Below are positions 1,179 through 24,199 of a stretch of 64,000 nt of DNA, in pieces. Made by a program: the position numbers and the translations under genes. Source of the DNA: an uncultured Gammaproteobacteria bacterium (GTDB taxonomy: Bacteria > Pseudomonadota > Gammaproteobacteria > UBA9214); NCBI GenBank assembly GCA_963773065.1, contig CAVYZN010000021.1, positions 1 to 64,000 of the forward strand, read 5' to 3'. The notes below the pieces were generated by a model, which saw only the letters and a program-made list of their open reading frames with translations, did no database searches and was not told the DNA's origin. The stretch's first letter is position 1. Each line of letters opens with the position of its first letter.

Positions 1179-3500
1179 ATGAGGAGACTTAACATCAATC
1201 TGCTCACCGGCCTGGTGCTGAGCATCGTGCTGCTGGGCATCATCAGCGCGGCGGCGACACTGGTCACGACGCGCATCTACCGCGACCTGACGTTTGACTT
1301 CGAGCGCCAGTACCTGAACCAACTGGTGGCCATCAAGACCTCGGATCTCCTGGCGCAGCTTGAACAGAATGCCTTCCAACTGGGACTGAGGATCCAGGCC
1401 AGTGAGGATTTCAAAACCGCATTGGCGGCGAATGACGAGTTCGTGCTGTCCGCGGCGCTCGAACAACAGTTCCGGCAAGGTCTGGTCACGGCGAATGCCG
1501 TCGCGGCGGTGGGCCTCTATGCCTTCGATCTGGATTTCAGGCTGCTGGGCTCGGCGCTGCGCCCCGCGGATGCCGCCGGCGACGGGTCCATCCTGTGTCC
1601 CGACCTGGCGGGCAAGGCGCGCCTGAGGGAAGGGGCGCGCCGGCTGCAGCCGGCGGCGGAAATCTGCCTATACGGGAACCGCCCCTATCAGGCCGTGATC
1701 ATTCCGGTTGGAGGGCTCGTGCCGAGCGGCTATCTGCAGGTCGTGTCCGACCCCGTGCCAGCGCTTAACGGTATCGACAAGGCGCTCAACATGCCCGTCA
1801 GGCTCGAATTACCCGATGGCACCGGACTCTACGAAACGCAGGGTTGGGGAGCAAGCCCGACGGAGAGCACCGTGGTCTCCGACTTCATCCTGCATACGAA
1901 TGACGCGCGCCCGGCCATCCGGATCACGGCCGCCAGGAATGCGGACGCACTGGTGGCCAGGCTCGACCAGATCAATACCCGGCTGATTGCCGTGGTCATC
2001 GCCATCATTCTGGTCACCGTCGCGGCGGCGCTCTGGTTTTTAAGGTATTCGGTGTTCAAGCCGCTGCGGGAATTGAGTCACCGGCTGAGCGGCGGGCGCC
2101 TGGAGCGTGGGGATCCCGTCAGTGAAATGCCGGCGGCGCCGGTGTCAGCGGCGCCGGCCAGCTTCCAGGCCCTCGGTGAGCTCTATGAAACGTTGCGGGA
2201 CATGGCGATACGTGATCCGCTCACCGGCACCTATAATCGCGCATTGCTGGAAGACCGCCTCAAACAGGTCATAGCCGAGCACCGCAGGACCCCGACCGTC
2301 GTCGCCATCATGCTGGTTGATCTGGTGCGCTTCAAATATGTCAACGATCTGCTGGGGCATCACACGGGTGATCTGCTGCTGCGGCAGGTGGTGGTGCGCA
2401 TGGCCTCGGTGCTGCGCGAATCCGATACCCTGGCGCGCCTGGGGGGTGACGAGTTCGCCATCATCCTGCCGGGCACCGACGGCGTCCAGGCGTCTCAGGT
2501 TGCGCAGAAAATCCTGCATGCCATGGAGCCTGAGTTCGCGGTCGAGCACCACACGCTCTCCGCCTCGGTATCGATCGGCATCGCCTTGATGCCCCATCAT
2601 GGCGAGGAGGTCGATGCCCTGCTGCGCCATGCCGACTATGCCATGTACGCGGCGAAGAAGACGCAGTCCGGATATGCGATTTACGACCCGAATATCACCG
2701 AAGAGATCGCCATGGCCCGGATGAAGCTGGACGGCGTGCTGAATGAGGATATCGAACGCAATGATCTCTTCCTCGTTTACCAGCCCGTGCTCGAATTCGG
2801 AACGGGGCAGGTCAGCTACCTCGAGGCGCTGGTGCGCTGGCGCCAGCCCGACGGTCGGGTGTTGTTGCCGGAGAGCTTCATCCGCGTGGCCGAGCAGAGC
2901 GGGTTGATCCGCGTGCTCTCCGAATGGATCATCAACACGGCGTGCCGGGAACTGGAGCGGTTGCAGGGGATCAGCCCGGGCCTGCGCGTCGGCATCAATC
3001 TGTCGATGCACAACCTGCATGATTATAACCTGACGGAAGTGATCAGGAAGGCGCTGGAACGTTACCGGCTCAAGGCGGACTCGTTGTTGCTGGAGATCAC
3101 CGAGACGGGGGTGATGCTGGATCCGAACCAGGTCATCGAAATCCTGGGCCAGTTGAGCGCCATGGGCCTGACTCTCTCCATTGATGATTTCGGCACCGGC
3201 CATTCCTCGCTGGTGTACCTCAAGCGCCTGCCGGTGCATACGCTCAAGGTCGACAAATCGTTCGTGATCGATATGGATACCGATGACGACAATGCCTCGA
3301 TCGTCCATGCGACCATCGATCTTGCCCATAACATGGGCCTCACCGTGACGGCCGAGGGGGTTGAAACCCGTCCGGTTTACGAGATGCTGAAGGCCATGGG
3401 GTGTGATTACTACCAGGGCTATTATGTTGGAGAACCCATGGAGAGTGCCGTTATCATTGACTGGCTGAACAAAAGCCGCCTGACCGGGTCAAGCCGGTGA
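1179..3500 (+). CDS. Membrane sensor diguanylate cyclase/phosphodiesterase (GGDEF-EAL)
   Basis: Two TM segments around a periplasmic domain; RESD I-site, RLGGDEF, EALVRW, DDFGTGHSSL. Confidence 0.93.
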   Translation: MRRLNINLLTGLVLSIVLLGIISAAATLVTTRIYRDLTFDFERQYLNQLVAIKTSDLLAQLEQNAFQLGLRIQASEDFKTALAANDEFVLSAALEQQFRQGLVTANAVAAVGLYAFDLDFRLLGSALRPADAAGDGSILCPDLAGKARLREGARRLQPAAEICLYGNRPYQAVIIPVGGLVPSGYLQVVSDPVPALNGIDKALNMPVRLELPDGTGLYETQGWGASPTESTVVSDFILHTNDARPAIRITAARNADALVARLDQINTRLIAVVIAIILVTVAAALWFLRYSVFKPLRELSHRLSGGRLERGDPVSEMPAAPVSAAPASFQALGELYETLRDMAIRDPLTGTYNRALLEDRLKQVIAEHRRTPTVVAIMLVDLVRFKYVNDLLGHHTGDLLLRQVVVRMASVLRESDTLARLGGDEFAIILPGTDGVQASQVAQKILHAMEPEFAVEHHTLSASVSIGIALMPHHGEEVDALLRHADYAMYAAKKTQSGYAIYDPNITEEIAMARMKLDGVLNEDIERNDLFLVYQPVLEFGTGQVSYLEALVRWRQPDGRVLLPESFIRVAEQSGLIRVLSEWIINTACRELERLQGISPGLRVGINLSMHNLHDYNLTEVIRKALERYRLKADSLLLEITETGVMLDPNQVIEILGQLSAMGLTLSIDDFGTGHSSLVYLKRLPVHTLKVDKSFVIDMDTDDDNASIVHATIDLAHNMGLTVTAEGVETRPVYEMLKAMGCDYYQGYYVGEPMESAVIIDWLNKSRLTGSSR

Positions 3501-14565: not shown

Positions 14566-14629
14566 GAGCGGGCTTGCCCGCGAACGGGTATCGAAACCCA
14601 ACGATTCGCGGGCAAGCCCGCTCCGTACA
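14561..14629. repeat. GTAG-type REP pair (REPIN) between convergent genes
   Basis: TGTAGGAGCGGGCTTGCCCGCGAA ... TTCGCGGGCAAGCCCGCTCCGTACA inverted pair. Confidence 0.85.
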
Positions 14630-14789
14630 AGTGGTTTCGTTACGATTTCAGCTCCAGGCGCTACTGAACCAATCGTTGGACCTGTCTGATGTGGAGATCG
14701 CTGCGCTACCGGGCCTGCTTGGGGAACCGCCGTTCGTGTTGTCGGGAGCTGATATGACTCGAAGGGAACTACTGCAATGGCCGGTAAAT

Positions 14790-15554
14790 TCACTCCACGG
14801 TGAACTGCCGGCCGCTGATGCCCCGGCTGTCCGTCGAGAGCAGATACAGGAACGGCCTGAGCACCTCGTCCGCCGTTCTGAGCCGGCTCCGGTCCTCGGC
14901 CGGATAGGCGATCAGGCGCAACGCCGTGCGCACGGCGCCCGGGTCGATGCTGTTGGCGCGCACCGGTGTATTGGCTTCCAGTTCATCGGCCAGGATCTGC
15001 ATCATGTTCTCCAGCCCGGCCTTGGCGATGCCATAGGCGCCCCAGTACGCCTTGCCGCGGCGCCCCGCGGCATCGGAGGTGAAGATGATGGAGGCATCGT
15101 CTTCGCAGCGGGTCATCAGTTCCAGACAGGCCCGGGTCAGCAGATAGGGCGCGTTGAGGTTGATCTGCATGACCTGGTGCCAGAGCTCGTCATCGAAATG
15201 CGCCAGCGGGGTCAGCGCGCCGAGCAGGGCCGCATTGTGTACCAGCCCGTGCAGCCGCCCGAATTCCCGTTCGAGGGTATGGGCGAGCGCGGCGTAGTCC
15301 TGCGCTGTCGCGCCCTGCAGGTCCAGCGGGTAGAGCGCGGGTTCCGGGTGCCCCGCCGCCAGGATTTCATCGTAGGTCTGTTCCAGCCCGCGCACGTTGC
15401 GGTCCAGCATGACGACCGTCGCGCCGTGTCTCGCGCAGGCGCGCGCGAGCGCCCGGCCGATCCCGTCGGCGGCGCCCGTGACCAGTACGATCCTGCCGGC
15501 AAGCAAATCGGCGGCGGGTTCCCAGTCGCGGGGTGGTTGGTGATCAGCGGTCAT
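14790..15554 (-). CDS. yciK: YciK-like short-chain dehydrogenase
   Basis: VTGAADGIG, HNAALLG, YWGAYGIAK, IDPGAVRT. Confidence 0.85.
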   Translation of the reverse strand: MTADHQPPRDWEPAADLLAGRIVLVTGAADGIGRALARACARHGATVVMLDRNVRGLEQTYDEILAAGHPEPALYPLDLQGATAQDYAALAHTLEREFGRLHGLVHNAALLGALTPLAHFDDELWHQVMQINLNAPYLLTRACLELMTRCEDDASIIFTSDAAGRRGKAYWGAYGIAKAGLENMMQILADELEANTPVRANSIDPGAVRTALRLIAYPAEDRSRLRTADEVLRPFLYLLSTDSRGISGRQFTVE

Positions 15555-15602
15555 GAGGGCGCCGATTATACCGGGGAATATCCCCTTCCCGATAACCCGG
15601 AT

Positions 15603-15730
15603 GTCCGTCCATAAAGAAATAAACTCACCGCAAAGGCGCGAAGAACGCAAAGCCGTTTAATTGTTTTTGTTAATATGTCTTCTTCGCGAACTTTGCGTCT
15701 TTGCGGTGAAAATGGTGTTTATGGATGGAC
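15603..15730. mobile_element. Complete ~128-bp MITE, copy 2 (opposite orientation)
   Basis: Terminal inverted repeats GTCCGTCCATAAA / TTTATGGATGGAC enclosing the long internal palindrome. Confidence 0.8.
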
Positions 15731-15760
15731 GTAGTGACACGATATGGTTGGATTGTGGCG

Positions 15761-16405
15761 ATGCTAGACGATATCCCGCTGTTTTCCGATCTCGATGCGG
15801 CCGAGCTCGCGTTGTTGTCCAGCAAGGCGGTGACCCGGCAGTACCCGCGCAACACGATCATCATCAATGAGGGTGATCGCAGCGATTCCCTGTATATCAT
15901 CCGCTCGGGCAGCGTAAAGGTCTTTCTGAGCGATGCCGACGGCAGGGAAGTGATTCTGAACGTTCAGGGACCCGGCGAGTATTTCGGTGAACTGGCGTTG
16001 ATCGACATCGGTCCGAGATCGGCCTCCGTCATCACGCAGGATAAAGCCACGCTGTCACTCATTTCGAAGTCGGATTTCGAGGATTTCATGCGACAGCACC
16101 CGGCGGCCACCGTCAAGATCATGCGCGGCATGGTCAAGCGGCTGCGGGCGCTGACGGAGAGTGTGAGAAGCCTGGCCCTGATGGACGTCTACGGCCGGGT
16201 CGCCGGTCTGCTGCTCAAGCTCTCGAAGCCCGAGGGGGATATCCGGGTGATCAGGGATCCCTTGACCCAGCAGGATATCGCCGACCGGGTGGGCGCCTCC
16301 CGCGAGATGGTGAGCCGCATCCTCAAGGATCTGAAGGCCGGCGGCTATATCGAGATTCACGACCGGCAGATCACCATCCGGGAGCGGCTGCCGCACGGCT
16401 GGTAG
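15761..16405 (+). CDS. Crp/Fnr family cyclic-nucleotide-binding transcriptional regulator
   Basis: cNMP cassette FGELALID..PRSASV; HTH TQQDIADRVGASREMVSRIL. Confidence 0.93.
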   Translation: MLDDIPLFSDLDAAELALLSSKAVTRQYPRNTIIINEGDRSDSLYIIRSGSVKVFLSDADGREVILNVQGPGEYFGELALIDIGPRSASVITQDKATLSLISKSDFEDFMRQHPAATVKIMRGMVKRLRALTESVRSLALMDVYGRVAGLLLKLSKPEGDIRVIRDPLTQQDIADRVGASREMVSRILKDLKAGGYIEIHDRQITIRERLPHGW

Positions 16406-16883: not shown

Positions 16884-19800
16884 TCAGAATGACAGGGTCA
16901 GGCGTGTGAAGAAAAACCGTTCCGGATAGATGCGCGGGTTGAAGGGATCGGTATCCACGAACTTGAACTTTCTCATCGAGCAGGTTGCTCACCCCGGCGC
17001 TGATGAACCCGTAGCGCTTCGGCAGCCGGTAACCGACCGTGGCATCCACCAGCCAGAACTGGTCGTTCTTGTCTTCGTCGGCACGTTGGCGAGGAACCCC
17101 GGCCCCGCGGTGGAAAATTCGCCCTGCTGGTCGATGTACGTCGTCCGCAAGTGGGCGAAGTAGCCGAGGGGATGAAAATAGCTGACGGTCAGCGGCACCC
17201 GCTGGGTCTGGATTTGGGTGGCCTGGAATTCGCCGGTGAAGGACTGCTCCCGCTTGAAGTCCTCATACTGGTATTCCGCGCTCGCCGCCACGCGCCGGGT
17301 GGGCGTCCAGTACAGATAGGCGCGCCCGAAGCCCTCGTCCCAGTTGACCTCATCGGGATCGCCGTCGATCAGGGGTACTTGCGTGTCACGCCAGCGGTAT
17401 TCCACGCCGCCGGAAACATCGGCGGTAAACACCTGATCGGCCGCCAGTCCATAGACGATGGCCTTGGTGCCGAACGGATCGTCGTAGAACTGGTTGAATC
17501 CCGCCACCTGGGTCGGCTCGATCGTCTGGCTGCTGGAGAGGCTGCGGGTGATGGTCCGAAATGCCGCGGCGCGCAGCGTGGTGTTTCCCTCGCCTGCCAG
17601 GTGAGGCCGAGCTTCGGATTGAGCTTCTGGACGCCGATGTGGGATTGTCTCGGCGGGCAGCGGCACGCCATTGGCCGTGTTCTTGCTGGTTTGATCCTCT
17701 CCGAGGTCGTCATAACTCGCGCCCGCCGTGACCAGCAGCGTATCGCCGTAGGGAATGTTGGCATAGCTATAAACGTTTTTGTGATCCTTGTTCTGATCCC
17801 GGTCTGGAATCGACGTTTGAGGCGGGAAACACCGGCGGCGTGAAGGTGGTGTCGGCGGTGGAAGGCAGCTTGCCGTCACCGGTGAAATAGCCCGCCCCGC
17901 TCACCAGCCTGAACGAGGCGCCATGGTAGAGGTGCTGGATCTCCGTGGTATTGCCGTTCTGGTGTTGTTCGAGATTGACGTTGGTATTCGCGGTCACTGG
18001 CGGCAGACCGGGGATCGGAGGCAGGTCCTGGGGTACGGAGGTGTCGAGGTTGAAGTCCCAGTCATGCAGGGTGATGAACGAGGCGATGATTTCCGAGCGC
18101 GGCGTGAATTCATGGTGCAGGCCGAGCCGCATGGTCTCGGCCGTGGTCTTCTCGCGCTGGGTAGGCAGGAAATCATCCGGCTCGAAGCGCTGTACCAGAT
18201 CGCCGTTCTTGATCCGCCGGTCGCGGTATTCGGCCTGTACGCTGGTCTGGTAGCTGAGCGCGCCCTGAACGAAGAGATCGTAGATGTCCTGGTCCTGGTC
18301 GTTGTTGTCGCGGAAGCCGTCGCTCTGGTAGTGGAACTGGCCGGCGCTCCAGGACCAGTTGTTGTACACGCCGTTTTGCACCACGTCATCGCCCCAGGTG
18401 CTGTTGCTGCCGGCGAGGCCGTCGGCCTGCAGGGCGAGGCGGTTGCGCGTGAACAGCGGATTGAACTCCAGGTAGGCGGGATCGGCCGGACCGGCGCCTT
18501 CCAGGATGAACAGGTTCTCCTCCGCGAGCTGCGGCGGCACCGGGGTCAGGTTGATCGGCTGCAGGAGCTGGGACTGCAGCAGTTCGCTCACGCGGGCGAT
18601 CTCGTGGCGGGGCAGGACGGAATAGCTGTCCGCGAGCAGCCGGTGGGCCGAGTAATTGGCGGGGTCGGTGTTGACCGACTGCCAGCCCTTCACCAGCGCC
18701 AGCTGCTCGAAACCGAGGTCGCTGTAGATGCGCGCCTGGCTGGCGCTGCGGGTGGCCAGATCCTCGTCGAGCTGCAGGCGCGAGCGGTACACGGCGCGGT
18801 TGTCGTTGAGCGCGATGGAGGTCTGCATGTCGTGCAGCGCCTCGACCGGGCGGTTTTCGGTCTGCTTGCGGATGGCGTCATAGAACCACGGCGTCGGGTC
18901 CTTGGGGTCGAGCGTCTTGGCCATCTCGTACTGGGTCCCCGCCAGCCGGTCGCGCTTCTCCTCGTAGTAGGCCTTGCCCATGTAGCTGCGGATCAGGGAA
19001 CTGGCGGGATCGAGCGCCACCGCGATTTCGATGGCTTCCCGGCCCGCCGCCAGCTCGCCTTTGCGGATCTGCGCCAGACCCAGCCCCAGGCGGGGCAGGG
19101 GCGCCGCCTGATCGAGAGCGATGGCTTCATCGAAGGCGCTCAGGGCCTGCGGTATTTTGATCTGAGTGAGGTAGGCGTAACCGCGCACGGTCTGGGTCAG
19201 AGCCAGTCGCGGCTCGATGCTGCTGGCCCGTTCCGCCGCCGCCAGTCCCTCATCCAGATAGCCCAGCGAAAGCCGCAGCTCCGCGAGACGCGCCCAGGCG
19301 AGGGCATCGTCGGGATTGTCGCGCACGGCGCTCTGCAGGCTCTCCAGCGCGCCGGCGAGATCGAAGGATCGCCTGCTGGACATAGGACATCGCGATCCGC
19401 GCCGCGGCGGAGGCGGGCCGGGCGGTGACGGCGCGCTGCGCCAGTTCCCGTGCGGATGCCGTGTCGTTCTGGGTCAGGGCGATGATGGACTGCAGCGCCA
19501 GCGCCTCGCTGTTGTCGGGGTCCTGCGCGAGCACCTGGGCCAGATACGCCCGCGCCTCATCGACCCGGCCCACGGCCAGGGCCTGCGCGGCCTGTTGCAG
19601 CGGAGCGTTGAGGCTTTCGGTGGCGGAGAGCACCGGCGGATAATACAGGGTCCATTGCACGGCATCGCGCGGGCGGACCACGGCTTCGGTGATCGGGGCC
19701 TGGCCGGCCTGGGCCACGGCGCGCTGATTGGCGCCGACCTGCACGCTGCCCGCCGGGTTGCTGACCTGCACCTGGCCTTCGTAGACGATGACGCCGGTTT

Positions 19801-20284
19801 CGCCCTCATCGACTTGCACCAGGAACTCCGTGCCGGTGATGGCGGCGTTGGCGAGCGGGGTGATGATCTGCAGTGACCGCGGATCGCGGCTGATGAAGTG
19901 CGCGGCTCCCTTGAGCAGTTCGAGCCAGGAGGGCGCGGTGTCGGTTTCCGCCGCGGTGAAGACCAGCGAACTGTACTGATCGAGACGGATCACGGTTTCC
20001 GGATAGAACAATATGGCCGCACGGCTGTTCCCGCCGGTGCGCACGGCATCACCCGGACAGAAGCGTTCATCCCGGCCGGCGGTCTGCCATTGCTGATCCC
20101 GGGCGCGTTTGACCTCCAGCGTACCCTGCACGGAGATGGCGCGCGCCAGCGCCGGATCACACGGTTGCGCCGCGGCCAGGAGCTGCGAGGGGATGGTCAG
20201 CGCATAAAGGATAAAGAGGTGAAGCAGACGGGCTTTGAGCGGAAATACCGCGTGTGAAAAAAATATGTTGTTCCCGATTGGCAT
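16884..20284 (-). CDS. FecR-TPR-beta-barrel outer-membrane protein (NsrA-like architecture), several apparent frameshifts
   Basis: FecR (GDAVRTG...ITPLANAAITGTEF), DAVQWTLYYPP, TPR helices, DPKDPTPWFYDAI, beta-rich C-terminal half ending FFTRLTLSF*. Confidence 0.82.
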
Positions 20285-20665
20285 CTTCTTGGTTGGCAAT
20301 GACGTGCCCGGTGGCTGACGTGCGCCGGTCCGCACATGGCTTGATCGATCAGGACCGCGATGTAATCACACGCGTCGCGTTACGGTCCAGCATTTTATCC
20401 TGCCACGGCATCGAGGGTCGATTTTCTCGGCCTCCTGTATACGTATTTGTACGTAGTCAGACCGGATTGCTACCGAGGCGAGTTCCGGGATGGGCATGCC
20501 GGCTAACGAGTGTGCCGTTAGGCCGCTTGCACATGGATGGGCAAGCGGTCCGGGATGGGCAGGACTGCCCGAAGCGACGTGCGGCACCCGTAGCCTACAG
20601 GGCCGGTATTCACGGCGTGTTCCGGCAAGCCCATCCCGGACCGCGTGGCATGACTCGTGATGCTC

Positions 20666-22921
20666 TTAGTCTGTGCCGTCAAGCCGTATGACGCCGTTCC
20701 AGTCATCGGCAGGCGGGTCCTGCCGATGGCGCAGGGAGAGATCCAGATAAAAGCGTGATACGCCATCGCCCTCACGGGTATTCACCAGTTGCGTGAACCG
20801 CTCGATGGCGGTTTTCCAGTCCGCCTGCCGGAACGCCGTGAGACCCTCGGCGAACAGTCCGTGCCGTTGCGTGATGGCCTGTTCCTCGATGGATTCACGC
20901 CGTCCGGCAAGCTCGTGTATCACCAGCGGGCGGGTTTTGCCACGCAGCAGAAACGTCCCGACCTCACGGGTCAGAAAGCCATCGATGCCCTCCAGGACTT
21001 CCTGTGACAGGAGCACCCGCGTTCCGAGCACCTTGTTCAGTCCCTGTATCCGGCTGGCGGAATTCACGATGTCGCCCACGGCGCGGTATTCATAATGATC
21101 GATCGCGCCGATGCTTCCCAGCAGGATTTCGCCGCTGTGCAGACCGAGCCGTGTGGCATGAACCCGCGGTGTATCCCGTTGACTCGACCGATTGAGGGTC
21201 TCGTCGATCTGCCGGGCCGCCTCGATGGCATGCCGGCGCATGGCGTGCTCCGGTGTGTGGGACGCCCAGATGGCCAGCATGGCGTCGCCGACGATATCCG
21301 AGATGATGCCCTCCTGCTCCCTGACCGGCTGGAACAGCGACTCGTAGTAGTTGTTCATCAGTCCGGCCAGCGCTTCCGGCGCCAGGCCTTCCGAGAGCCG
21401 GGTGTAATGCTCGGCATCCGAATACAGACAGGTGCCGTACATCAACTGGCCTTCCGCCCGGCCATCGGCCAGATCACCGGCCAGCCGGTCGACGACTGGG
21501 GAGGGCAGGTAATAGCCGAAGGCGGTGCGGATGTTTTCCCGTTCCCGGCGCACCTCCAGGTAATGCCAAAGCGTCGCGCTGAACAGGGCGAACGGCGCCT
21601 GCAGGAACAGCGGCACCATCAGGGGCGGCCAGAGGGCGGAATGACTGAAGGCGACATGGCCTGCGCCGAGATAGAGACCGGCGAGACCAAGCGTAGCGGC
21701 CACGGCGGGAAATACCGGCAACAGGCGGGCGACGGCGCCGATGAGCAGACCCCAGGCGAATAACAGGAGGAAACCGGCCGGTCTGGGCAGCGGCGTGACC
21801 GGCAGGTTCTCCAGCAGGTTGGCGAACGCCGTGGCGGCGATTTCAACGCCGCTCAGATGCACGCCGTTTTTTTGTGAGTAGACCGTATAGAATTCATCCA
21901 GCCGCTCCGGCTGCAGGCGCTCCGAATAGCCCACGAAAACCGCCTTGCCGCGCAGGTCGAGGGCCTCCTGAGCGTGCGATGACTTCGCCTCCGGGCGCAA
22001 TACCCGGACATAGGAGAGTGTGGTTATCGACTGCGGCGGGCCGTAATAGTTGAGGTAGCGGCTGTCGCCGCCGCCGTACATGCCGATGAGCGCGCGCAGC
22101 AGGCGAAGCTTTCGTGCGCTGATGCGCTGCTGCGCTTCATCGGCCAGCGTCTCCGTCAGGCGCTGCGCCAGCGCCGGCTCTTCCCTGAAAACGGCCCGCA
22201 ATGCCTGCATGGAGGTGATGGCCTCGTGTCCGGCGAATGGGTCGCGCACGGCGCCGGCCGGCGGTGTGTTGCCTGAGCGTGCGTTTTGCTTGATCAGATC
22301 CAGCAGATCGGGATACGCCGTCGCCGCATGGAGCTGCAGGGCGACCAGCGGCAGGGTCGGCAGGTCACCGGTGCCCGGGGTGAAGGTCCAGAACTGACTG
22401 ACCTTGACCGGGAAAACCGGTAACGGGAACGGGGCAATCGCCCGCGCCGATGGAGCGATCGACGCGACGGGGAGCACGAGGCGCTGGGCAATCAGTTCAC
22501 CGGCGGAATTTCCGGCCAGCGTGGAGAGCTCCTTTTTGGTGTAGGCAAACAGCACGACATTGCCGGCCTTCCCGATGGCCGACGCGAGCGCCGCGTCATC
22601 CCGGGGGTCACGCGGTTCCTCGAAGAAGATATCGAGTACGATCACCGACGCGCCGGCCTCGACGAGCCTGTCGATCAACCGTGCGTGATAGGCGCGCGGC
22701 CACTTGACCGGTTCAACGGGCAGGCCAAGCGTGTCGGCGGACGGCTTATCGATGGCGACCACGACCACCTCGGACGGTGGAGTGCGCGGCCCGCGCAGGG
22801 TGAAGAGCCAATCGAGTCCGGCATGTTCCTCGATATCGAGAACGAACGGGATGAGGCTCGTCAGAATTCCCAGGATCCCCGTGAATAATCCCAGCAGGAT
22901 GGCCTTCGCCGGTTTGTTCAT
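20666..22921 (-). CDS. CHASE2-domain class III nucleotide cyclase
   Basis: CHASE2 (VVVAID, WPRAYHARLIDRL, SGVEIAATAFANLL), 3 TM, cyclase motifs LYSD, VGDAM, GLHSG, GDIVNSASR. Confidence 0.92.
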   Translation of the reverse strand: MNKPAKAILLGLFTGILGILTSLIPFVLDIEEHAGLDWLFTLRGPRTPPSEVVVVAIDKPSADTLGLPVEPVKWPRAYHARLIDRLVEAGASVIVLDIFFEEPRDPRDDAALASAIGKAGNVVLFAYTKKELSTLAGNSAGELIAQRLVLPVASIAPSARAIAPFPLPVFPVKVSQFWTFTPGTGDLPTLPLVALQLHAATAYPDLLDLIKQNARSGNTPPAGAVRDPFAGHEAITSMQALRAVFREEPALAQRLTETLADEAQQRISARKLRLLRALIGMYGGGDSRYLNYYGPPQSITTLSYVRVLRPEAKSSHAQEALDLRGKAVFVGYSERLQPERLDEFYTVYSQKNGVHLSGVEIAATAFANLLENLPVTPLPRPAGFLLLFAWGLLIGAVARLLPVFPAVAATLGLAGLYLGAGHVAFSHSALWPPLMVPLFLQAPFALFSATLWHYLEVRRERENIRTAFGYYLPSPVVDRLAGDLADGRAEGQLMYGTCLYSDAEHYTRLSEGLAPEALAGLMNNYYESLFQPVREQEGIISDIVGDAMLAIWASHTPEHAMRRHAIEAARQIDETLNRSSQRDTPRVHATRLGLHSGEILLGSIGAIDHYEYRAVGDIVNSASRIQGLNKVLGTRVLLSQEVLEGIDGFLTREVGTFLLRGKTRPLVIHELAGRRESIEEQAITQRHGLFAEGLTAFRQADWKTAIERFTQLVNTREGDGVSRFYLDLSLRHRQDPPADDWNGVIRLDGTD

Positions 22922-23374: not shown

Positions 23375-24199
23375 TCAGTCGGATTGATCTTCTTGGAGAT
23401 GCAGGGACTGACTGATATCAATCAGAACCTCTTCCGGCCGGTTGTTATTGCACGCATACACCATGCGCACCAGGTCCGGCAGGGAGGTCACCCCCATCTT
23501 TCGCATTATCTTCGATCGATGGATTTCGACGGTTCGGCTGCTCAATCCCAATTGTTCCGCAAGATTTTTGTTCGAGACGCCGCTTATGAGGTATGTCATC
23601 ACTTCCCGTTCGCGGGGTGTCAACCGCTCATATTTCTTCTCCAGTGTCTGGCGACGCCTGCGTTCCTCTTGCTCGGCGCTCGCCAGCAACATGGCATTCC
23701 CGACGCTGTTCTGAAGCTGCTTGTTCGTGAACGGTTTCTCGATGAAATCAAGCGCCCCCCCTTTGATCGCCAGCACGGATTTTTCCACATTCCCATAGCC
23801 GCTGATGAAAATGGTCTTCAGTCCGATGCCGCGTTTCCTCAGCTCAGCCTGCAACTCCAGACCGGATATGTCTCCCATGTTCAGGTCCAGGATGAGAACG
23901 CCTGTGGTCGCTTCGCTGACTGAGGCAAGCAGGGATTCGGCGGAGGCAAATGGCATGACCGTGTAATCCGCGTTTTCAAACAAGAGGGTTAATGCATGGC
24001 ACACCGCCGAGTCATCATCGACGATGTAGATGGTTCGACACCCCTCTCCCACAGGGGGAGGCTGGCTGGAAGCGGATGGTATATCCCCTTTTGTTTGGTT
24101 AGTCATGCGGCGATTCCACCCTCTGCTTGCCGGTAATGAAGGGCCATCCCTGGCAGTCATCCATGACGCATCCCTCAACCTTGAAATTAGCTGAAACAC
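23375..24199 (-). CDS. FixJ/LuxR-type response regulator (alternative start at 24106)
   Basis: IVDDD, ILDLNM, FIEKPF, LTPREREV...SRTVEIHRSKIMRKM; AGGAGG before GTG. Confidence 0.9.
   Translation of the reverse strand: MFQLISRLRDASWMTARDGPSLPASRGWNRRMTNQTKGDIPSASSQPPPVGEGCRTIYIVDDDSAVCHALTLLFENADYTVMPFASAESLLASVSEATTGVLILDLNMGDISGLELQAELRKRGIGLKTIFISGYGNVEKSVLAIKGGALDFIEKPFTNKQLQNSVGNAMLLASAEQEERRRRQTLEKKYERLTPREREVMTYLISGVSNKNLAEQLGLSSRTVEIHRSKIMRKMGVTSLPDLVRMVYACNNNRPEEVLIDISQSLHLQEDQSD

Follow-up and report, generated by a model that had tools for sequence, protein, structure and literature searches.

Which base does a class III nucleotidyl cyclase select when the two residues that normally recognise it carry inverted charges? 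The question is raised by a CHASE2-linked cyclase gene in a stretch of 64,000 nucleotides, hereafter the window, from an uncultured gammaproteobacterium of lineage UBA9214 (GenBank assembly GCA_963773065.1, contig CAVYZN010000021.1, positions 1 to 64,000 of the forward strand). An earlier note had pointed to an Asp/Arg pair at the base-specifying positions of this enzyme, and had proposed cyclic guanosine monophosphate (cGMP) or a cyclic pyrimidine, rather than cyclic adenosine monophosphate (cAMP), as a messenger read by a dedicated Crp-family regulator outside phage defence. Our analysis shows that the Asp/Arg pair is the trait of a large clade of CHASE2 cyclases, uncharacterised so far and coupled to NsrA-like proteins, in which the charges of the base pocket are inverted. 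What such a pocket would select is a matter of weighing, in which GTP is our tentative first choice. The gene and its parts, numbered by position in the window, are as follows.

20666..22921 including the stop codon, minus strand: CHASE2-class III nucleotidyl cyclase gene, 751 amino acids (open reading frame list and Pfam)
21737..22843, minus strand: periplasmic CHASE2 sensor domain, residues 27-395 (Pfam PF05226, 120.5 bits)
20930..21433, minus strand: class III cyclase catalytic domain, residues 497-664 (Pfam PF00211 Guanylate_cyc; PDB sequence matches to CyaB, CyaC and Cya2)
21416..21418, minus strand: metal-binding Asp502 (aligned with the first metal Asp of CyaB, CyaC and Cya2)
21296..21298, minus strand: Asp542, first base-specifying position, Lys in adenylate and Glu in guanylate cyclases (GAT codon and structure alignments)
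21284..21286, minus strand: metal-binding Asp546 (Asp in 150 of 150 homologous cluster representatives)
21083..21085, minus strand: Arg613, second base-specifying position, Asp or Thr in adenylate and Cys, Ser or Gly in guanylate cyclases (CGC codon and structure alignments)
21050..21064, minus strand: transition-state Asn620 and Arg624, in VNSASR (alignment and conservation in representatives)
20669..20929, minus strand: C-terminal tail of about 85 amino acids, clade-conserved, ending '...DPPADDW...' (homologues cover 1-281 of the 284-residue C-terminal piece used as query)

The two base-specifying positions were placed by phmmer alignments to the sequences of solved structures. Asp542 (iisDivGDa) lies opposite the Lys of Pseudomonas aeruginosa CyaB (3r5g, tidKfvGDc) and of Spirulina CyaC (1wc1, tvdKfvGDa) and opposite the Glu of the guanylate cyclase Cya2 (2w01, tidEfmGDg); Arg613 (eyRavGD) lies opposite the Thr of CyaB (dyTiiG) and CyaC (dfTaiG) and the Gly of Cya2 (kyGvvG). 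The pair reported earlier is indeed present, and the codons, GAT at 21296-21298 and CGC at 21083-21085, agree to the nucleotide. With Asp542/Arg613 the enzyme has neither the adenylate cyclase combination, Lys first and Asp or Thr (or Ser) second, nor that of guanylate cyclases, Glu first and Cys, Ser or Gly, or Lys in the defence enzyme PfPucC, second.

The pair is conserved among syntenic homologues, the point on which the earlier proposal depended. Among the 120 best 90%-cluster homologues and the query (n = 121), D/R was found in 110, N/R in nine, and D/H and D/T in one each. When 1.84 billion 50%-cluster representatives were searched, 58,644 matched at E ≤ 0.001 and 1,499 of them at E ≤ 1e-30; the best 150 (41-69% identity) include 106 with D/R, 14 with N/R, seven with D/T, five with Q/R, four with D/A and 14 with other pairs. 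Position 1 in these 150 is Asp in 119, Asn in 17, Gln in seven and Glu in two (D, N, Q or E in 145/150) and never Lys (0/150), and position 2 is Arg in 126. All 20 gammaproteobacterial genome loci, which belong to various genera and were picked among the better matches, have D/R. Eighty metagenome loci were found using an alignment of the clade, and both positions could be read in 66: D/R 40, N/R 6, G/T 3, D/G 3, E/S 3, E/R 2, N/A 2, and N/S, N/G, A/G, D/H, E/G, E/Q and K/T once each. Glu at position 1 is a minority in both collections (2/150 representatives, 7/66 metagenome loci). Clade members at E ≤ 1e-40 occur in 38 of 401 sampled genomes of Gammaproteobacteria (31/321 by genus); this sample includes four genomes flagged as unpublished, from which none of the 20 loci were drawn and without which the count is 34/397. 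Relatives were also present in records labelled Nitrospirota and Deltaproteobacteria.

Phylogeny places these sequences together. In a FastTree phylogeny of 141 catalytic domains, with local support only and with long outgroup rows flagged, 134 rows form one clade (support 95) in which Lys occurs in no row (0/134). Outside this clade are three Lys-bearing rows, namely a CyaK-like enzyme of Sinorhizobium meliloti (L007), a cyanobacterial GAF-PAS cyclase (L006) and L145, and four other cyclases of the source genome that served as outgroups. The window cyclase belongs to a subclade of 60 rows (support 97), 58 of them D/R, and the variant pairs form small nested groups, with the Glu variants E/R, E/G, E/Q and E/S inside the clade. 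The D/R pair has been preserved while the clade diverged to about 40% identity, which is far beyond chance. Glu504, two residues past the first metal Asp and matched to Arg450 of Cya2 by counting from that Asp, was considered as a further pocket partner and set aside, as it is Glu in 73/134 clade rows and does not clearly covary with position 2. The '...DPPADDW...' tail was also seen in a cyanobacterial GAF-GAF-PAS protein of adenylate-cyclase type with a Lys/Thr pair (L006, 8174-10900), and since it is common to this protein the tail predates the D/R clade. Full-text searches of the open literature on CHASE2 proteins, with subscription journals outside their scope, yielded nothing on D/R CHASE2 cyclases in the titles or abstract openings of the matching papers.

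A changed base pocket could also mark a domain that no longer makes any nucleotide and acts as a scaffold or regulator. The modest Pfam score (39.8 bits) and a first motif reading TDAxxYT against the canonical SDIxGFT would be consistent with a catalytically dead or non-cyclase domain. However, the metal Asp pair, the Asn and the Arg are nearly invariant over the best 150 representatives (Asp502 in 148 with 2 gaps, Asp546 in 150, Asn620 in 147 and Arg624 in 149), and 62 of the 72 metagenome loci with any readable position have the whole tetrad, so that we hold this explanation to be very improbable indeed. As had been noted, the catalytic residues of the window enzyme are intact: D502, D546, N620 and R624 align with their counterparts in CyaB, CyaC and Cya2 and all lie in one chain, as in homodimeric cyclases. 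The Guanylate_cyc match exceeds the curated cut-off of 21.9 bits, which places the domain in class III by its profile, and a separate profile search of the genome's contigs returned the same span; against NCBIfam, the open reading frame had no family at E ≤ 0.01.

If the nucleotide were bound in the canonical pose, position 1 would face N1/N2 of the purine and position 2 the 6-substituent, and both residues of the Asp/Arg pair would clash with adenine, Asp being set against the N1 acceptor and Arg against the N6 donor. The same acid/base pair fits guanine: Asp542 could accept hydrogen bonds from N1-H and N2-H2, and Arg613 could donate to O6 and N7, in parallel with the Glu/Gly of Cya2 and the Glu/Lys of PfPucC. 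GTP selection is favoured because an acidic first position has these two enzymes as GTP precedents and because the hydrogen-bonding of Asp/Arg suits guanine, and the Glu-bearing variants nested inside the D/R clade were counted toward it as well. Judged from these two residues, a clade-wide remodelling from Lys with Asp or Thr to Asp with Arg would have produced a GTP-selecting enzyme, and we propose, with somewhat less than even confidence, that the D/R cyclase makes cGMP. 

The main competitor, which we regard as unlikely and yet serious, is that the enzyme is still an adenylate cyclase, with Asp/Arg as a charge-swapped equivalent of Lys/Asp or with positions that matter little, and that it provides a second cAMP input as in S. 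meliloti. The unfavourable contacts just described would stand against it, and the complete loss of Lys from the clade while the sister CyaK-like enzyme, L006 and L145 retain it is more suggestive of a change of function than of drift. A cyclase promiscuous for purines, which would produce cAMP as well as cGMP for a dual-specificity Crp resembling Clr of S. meliloti, would account for the variation of position 1 among D, N, Q and E, which suggests loose hydrogen-bonding needs, and Clr itself is activated by both nucleotides (PMC10127613). The near-uniform D/R pair of the 60-row subclade argues for a specific fit, and makes promiscuity improbable.

The genes around the cyclase suggest the pathway in which the nucleotide would act. 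Two of them are essential to the argument.

16902..20338, minus strand: NsrA-like outer-membrane receptor gene with FecR, TPR and a predicted barrel, in three frames here (Pfam FecR, TPR)
15725..16405, plus strand: Crp-family regulator, 226 amino acids, with 'RSAS' as phosphate-binding cassette and Leu-Thr in the C-helix (Pfam cNMP_binding and HTH_Crp_2)

The CHASE2 domain is N-terminal and, in a by-eye reading of the translation, is bordered on both sides by hydrophobic segments, and the gene adjacent to the cyclase is of the FecR-TPR-barrel type; in both respects the locus agrees with modules of the CyaK type, and we are confident that CHASE2 cyclase, NsrA-like protein and Crp constitute a module. 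The NsrA-like gene lies beside the cyclase in 16 of 20 genome loci and in 34 of the 36 metagenome loci with 1.2 kb or more on either side of the cyclase (here termed well-flanked). Its C-terminal part has no Pfam match and is predicted to be a barrel from the example of S. meliloti NsrA, in which the barrel was assigned to amino acids 600-1200 (PMC7529298). If signals flow through the module as in CyaK/NsrA/Clr, the NsrA-like protein would receive an external cue and pass it to the periplasmic CHASE2 domain, the cytoplasmic catalytic domain, presumably a homodimer, would make a 3',5'-cyclic nucleotide, and the module's own Crp paralogue would read it. Two NsrA-like genes in tandem after the cyclase were observed in the gammaproteobacterial loci L058 (10989-19230) and L069 (2-6813).

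In the window, the NsrA-like gene downstream of the cyclase is divided into three overlapping open reading frames with FecR and TPR domains, and it is a single frame of 3321-3462 nucleotides (about 1150 amino acids) in L003, L004, L005, L059, L060 and L066, with 1153 amino acids in L003. The frame breaks near 19365-19370 and 17804-17831, and possibly a third time near 16963-17076; at the first break the window has one extra base, near 19368, relative to L003 and L004. Four DNA sequencing runs gave only short related-strain contigs, mostly 90-99% alike; those from runs X3 and X4 differ by a net one base at the first break and lack the extra base, and those from X4 differ by a net two bases at the second. 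Either the gene is truly broken in this genome or the assembly is wrong here.

The dedicated Crp paralogue postulated earlier exists. The window protein scores 135.3 bits on the CRP equivalog model NF008732, below its cut-off of 266, which sets it apart from true CRP, and it shares 37% identity with the canonical CRP of its own genome, where the aligned C-helix reads RLRKTSR against RLRALTE. Its cyclic nucleotide monophosphate (cNMP)-binding domain has the E...RS cassette, and the recognition helix of its helix-turn-helix (HTH) domain is REMVSR. Orthologues (37-58% identity) directly adjoin the cyclase in 15/20 genome loci, and in the closest relatives, L003 and L004, the module has the Crp at its far end, the arrangement also seen in the window. 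In the 18 module Crps compared, the 'RSAS' cassette is constant (18/18), with a C-helix pair of Leu-Thr in 17 and of Leu-Ser in one, so that the C-helix difference from CRP on which attention had been drawn is conserved. The six well-flanked metagenome loci with a linked Crp orthologue are all D/R (6/21 D/R loci against 0/15 others), in small numbers and among kin that are not independent.

As an indicator of the messenger, the C-helix motif did not hold up. CAP, SYCRP1, Clr and CgrA all combine a cNMP-binding domain with a Crp HTH domain, as the window Crp does, and their C-helix pairs vary: Thr-Ser in CAP, Thr-Thr in Clr and Leu-Asn in SYCRP1 (PMC10187061, PMC10127613). SYCRP1 binds cAMP despite Leu at the position of CAP T127, and the cGMP receptor CgrA retains the CAP signatures except for RS to RT in the cassette (PMC10187061), where CAP and Clr have 'RS' as in the window Crp. 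Leu-Thr was consequently rejected as a marker of cGMP, being non-diagnostic in this comparison. Escherichia coli CRP with the T127L substitution reportedly responds to cGMP. The mutant T127L of Escherichia coli CRP is listed among those with a higher affinity for DNA when cAMP is absent (PMC11445507). CAP-type sites (TGTGA-N6-TCACA, up to 2 mismatches) were not found in three intergenic regions of the window; crp-cyclase intergenic regions gave 6 weak matches in 5/15 loci with no conserved position, at a density of 0.93/kb against a background of 0.26/kb. Given these weak and unconserved matches, there is no case for autoregulation by the Crp. 

Other arrangements of receptor genes were also seen near clade members. 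Two Crp-like genes stand in tandem upstream of the cyclase in L067 (6886-8010), an orthologue of 50% identity and a weaker copy of 31%, and in a Nitrospirota metagenome-assembled genome (L005, 2672-3001) a cNMP-binding protein with the aligned C-helix RLRKLGED lies upstream of an Asn/Arg clade member. An open reading frame of 346 amino acids without a Pfam family lies just upstream of the Crp in the window (14574-15614, plus strand) and beside the Crp in L003 and L004 (63-69% identity).

The module is accompanied by ordinary cAMP signalling. The source genome encodes six domains of class III cyclases and eleven that bind cNMPs, and its other cyclases have Lys/Asp (two), Asn/Thr, Glu/Arg, and a fragment ending in Thr, as read from translated frames and the tree alignment. 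Its canonical CRP (L015:1408-2073) scores 342.4 bits on NF008732; a class I CyaA was not found in the assembly, which is 91% complete. The five other genomes that carry the module all encode, in addition to its paralogue (117-153 bits), a canonical CRP that exceeds the cut-off (334-349 bits). A class I CyaA is present in four of these five, and in two of them no class III cyclase other than the D/R enzyme was found. Since module-bearing genomes hold a canonical CRP together with CyaA or Lys-type cyclases, a separate cAMP channel exists in them, and a second cAMP source with a second Crp would be expected to cross-talk with it, a further difficulty for the adenylate cyclase alternative. Separation of a dedicated cyclase-Crp pair from the CyaA-CRP pair would be easiest if the messengers differ, and on the GTP-selecting interpretation the module would be a cGMP channel alongside the cell's cAMP-CRP channel.

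Several cyclases elsewhere in these genomes are observations in their own right. In the source genome, the Glu/Arg protein (C11:363920-364993, L010) consists of a short class III domain and, after it, a putatively FHA-like C-terminus, and a protein resembling it, from genome G148 (L156), has Lys/Asp. The Asn/Thr membrane cyclase (C23:143838-145406, L009) adjoins a membrane protein with a cNMP-binding domain (C23:142178-142429, L019), and the two may be another private cyclase-receptor pair. In genome G292, an FHA-like and cyclase protein with an Asp/Ala pair (IKDYAGDA, NVAIVGD; L162, G292:C62:1-2741) is on the same contig as a D/R module, and about 400 bp from this FHA-like cyclase there is a Crp-like gene that scores 134.7 bits against the CRP model (G292:C62:1660-2241).

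A number of points weigh against cGMP as the product, and many of them support the adenylate cyclase alternative. Mycobacterial class III cyclases without the Lys, Rv1900c and Rv0386 among them, still prefer ATP, which makes base-pair rules unreliable in bacteria. The best solved matches of the window enzyme are adenylate cyclases, narrowly so (CyaB 59 bits and CyaC 54 bits against 51.8 bits for Cya2). Neither Asp at the first position nor Arg at the second occurs among the characterised guanylate cyclase pairs of the literature compared (Glu/Cys, Glu/Ser, Glu/Gly and Glu/Lys). The Crp has no cGMP signature, its 'RS' cassette resembling CAP and Clr and not the 'RT' of CgrA, and its Leu at the T127 position is shared with the cAMP-binding SYCRP1 (PMC10187061). 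The S. meliloti module of the same architecture, CHASE2 cyclases with NsrA and Clr, is described as signalling through cAMP (PMC13001267, PMC7529298). Crp linkage is lineage-restricted, with an orthologue in only 6 of the 36 well-flanked metagenome loci. Finally, with a frame-shifted NsrA-like partner the module may be non-functional in the source genome, or the shifts may be assembly errors. Taking both sides together, the Asp/Arg pocket may define a clade whose product is something other than cAMP, with the cGMP form more likely than the cyclic pyrimidine form; of the two alternatives in the earlier note, cGMP is the better supported.

Bacterial guanylate cyclases are held to be rare, and the sequence rules that separate them from adenylate cyclases are poor; a 2004 article by Shenoy and Visweswariah reportedly has 'a dearth of guanylyl cyclases' in its title. 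In the coherent clade described here, every member examined has another residue in place of the ATP-selecting Lys and has retained the catalytic machinery. The clade is coupled to an outer-membrane receptor, often has a Crp paralogue of its own, and coexists with canonical CyaA and CRP. Should the Asp/Arg pair select GTP, signalling by cGMP would be much commoner among environmental bacteria than thought, and Asp-Arg would be a new specificity code, usable for annotation and for optogenetic engineering. An envelope-gated cGMP-Crp pathway would then be present in about one in ten sampled gammaproteobacterial genomes and in lineages beyond. If cAMP is still made, the Lys/Asp rule can be fully inverted.

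The wider neighbourhood indicates a sensory rather than a defensive setting, in agreement with the non-defence role proposed in the earlier note. Besides the NsrA-like and Crp genes, the window neighbours are a FixJ-type regulator and gph, ubiG, scpAB and rluB-like genes, a mostly housekeeping company in which no TIR or transmembrane (TM) effector was found. Membership in Pycsar or Pucsar defence was rejected on this ground and because the matches to the PycC profiles are generic. The FixJ/LuxR-type response regulator gene lies upstream of the cyclase (23375-24199, minus strand), a position kept only in the closest relatives L001-L004 (62-69% identity) and not in the wider clade.

Among known systems, the PycC cyclases of Pycsar (BcPycC, EaPycC and AnPycC) share with the window enzyme a class III-like fold and a non-canonical base pocket, for which BcPycC uses Asp and Arg (PMC11224242). 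They raise the possibility of a pyrimidine cyclase whose cUMP or cCMP would be an ordinary second messenger, outside phage defence, read by the Leu-Thr Crp. The class III fold can make these nucleotides, BcPycC selects UTP with Tyr50, D94 and R97 (EaPycC has F100, R142 and Q144; PMC11224242), and the window enzyme has a Tyr, Tyr500, two residues ahead of the first metal Asp. However, Tyr500 is not conserved (of the 134 clade rows, 53 have A, 28 have F and 17 have Y), and D94 and R97 of BcPycC appear, by numbering taken over from EaPycC rather than by alignment, at -2 and +1 of the second metal Asp, away from the positions of Asp542 and Arg613. On the PADLOC PycC models the CyaK-like enzyme, with its canonical Lys/Ser pair, reaches 89 bits and the window cyclase 54.5, PycC enzymes belong to defence operons with a TIR or TM effector of which none is nearby, and selection in BcPycC is described as steric occlusion (bioRxiv 10.64898/2026.08.12.744502), nothing similar to which is shown here. 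The Pycsar analogy of the earlier note is left without specific support, and we consider a cyclic pyrimidine product a distant prospect.

A close match in architecture is the CyaK/CyaD1/CyaD2-NsrA-Clr system of S. meliloti, which shares the CHASE2 cyclase, a neighbouring FecR-TPR-barrel protein of about 1200 amino acids and a Crp-family reader. On pSymB of S. meliloti Rm41, an open reading frame of 1216 amino acids with FecR, TPR and barrel immediately precedes a CHASE2 cyclase of 649 amino acids, which we call CyaK-like by position alone, as the record carries no annotation. The order there is nsrA and then cyclase, whereas in the window the cyclase comes before the NsrA-like gene. The CyaK-like enzyme also differs in its Lys/Ser pair (DKYIGD, FDYSALGD) and in its place outside the D/R clade, and the S. 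meliloti messenger is reported to be cAMP (PMC13001267, PMC7529298).

Among solved cyclases, CyaB of P. aeruginosa (PDB 3R5G), the best match over residues 20-209 of the C-terminal piece, is likewise a membrane receptor-type class III enzyme. It differs in having a Lys/Thr pair and cAMP as its product. Its sensor domain is unlike the CHASE2 domain of the window cyclase. Synechocystis Cya2 (PDB 2W01) aligns at E 8.5e-13 and has, like the window cyclase, a CHASE2 domain, a homodimeric class III domain and an acidic residue at position 1. Cya2 selects GTP with Glu488 and Gly562, supported by Lys and Tyr (PMC6005667), in place of Asp and Arg. PfPucC of Pucsar defence makes cGMP, with E118 and K195 at the positions of K497 and D566 of an engineered rhodopsin adenylate cyclase, although one legend of the preprint gives Gly118 where the text gives Glu118 (bioRxiv 10.64898/2026.08.12.744502). 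PfPucC is a soluble enzyme of a Pycsar-related defence branch with a TIR-effector partner and with Glu/Lys instead of Asp/Arg, and yet it shares with the window cyclase the order of acid and then base at the two positions facing the Watson-Crick edge (bioRxiv 10.64898/2026.08.12.744502).

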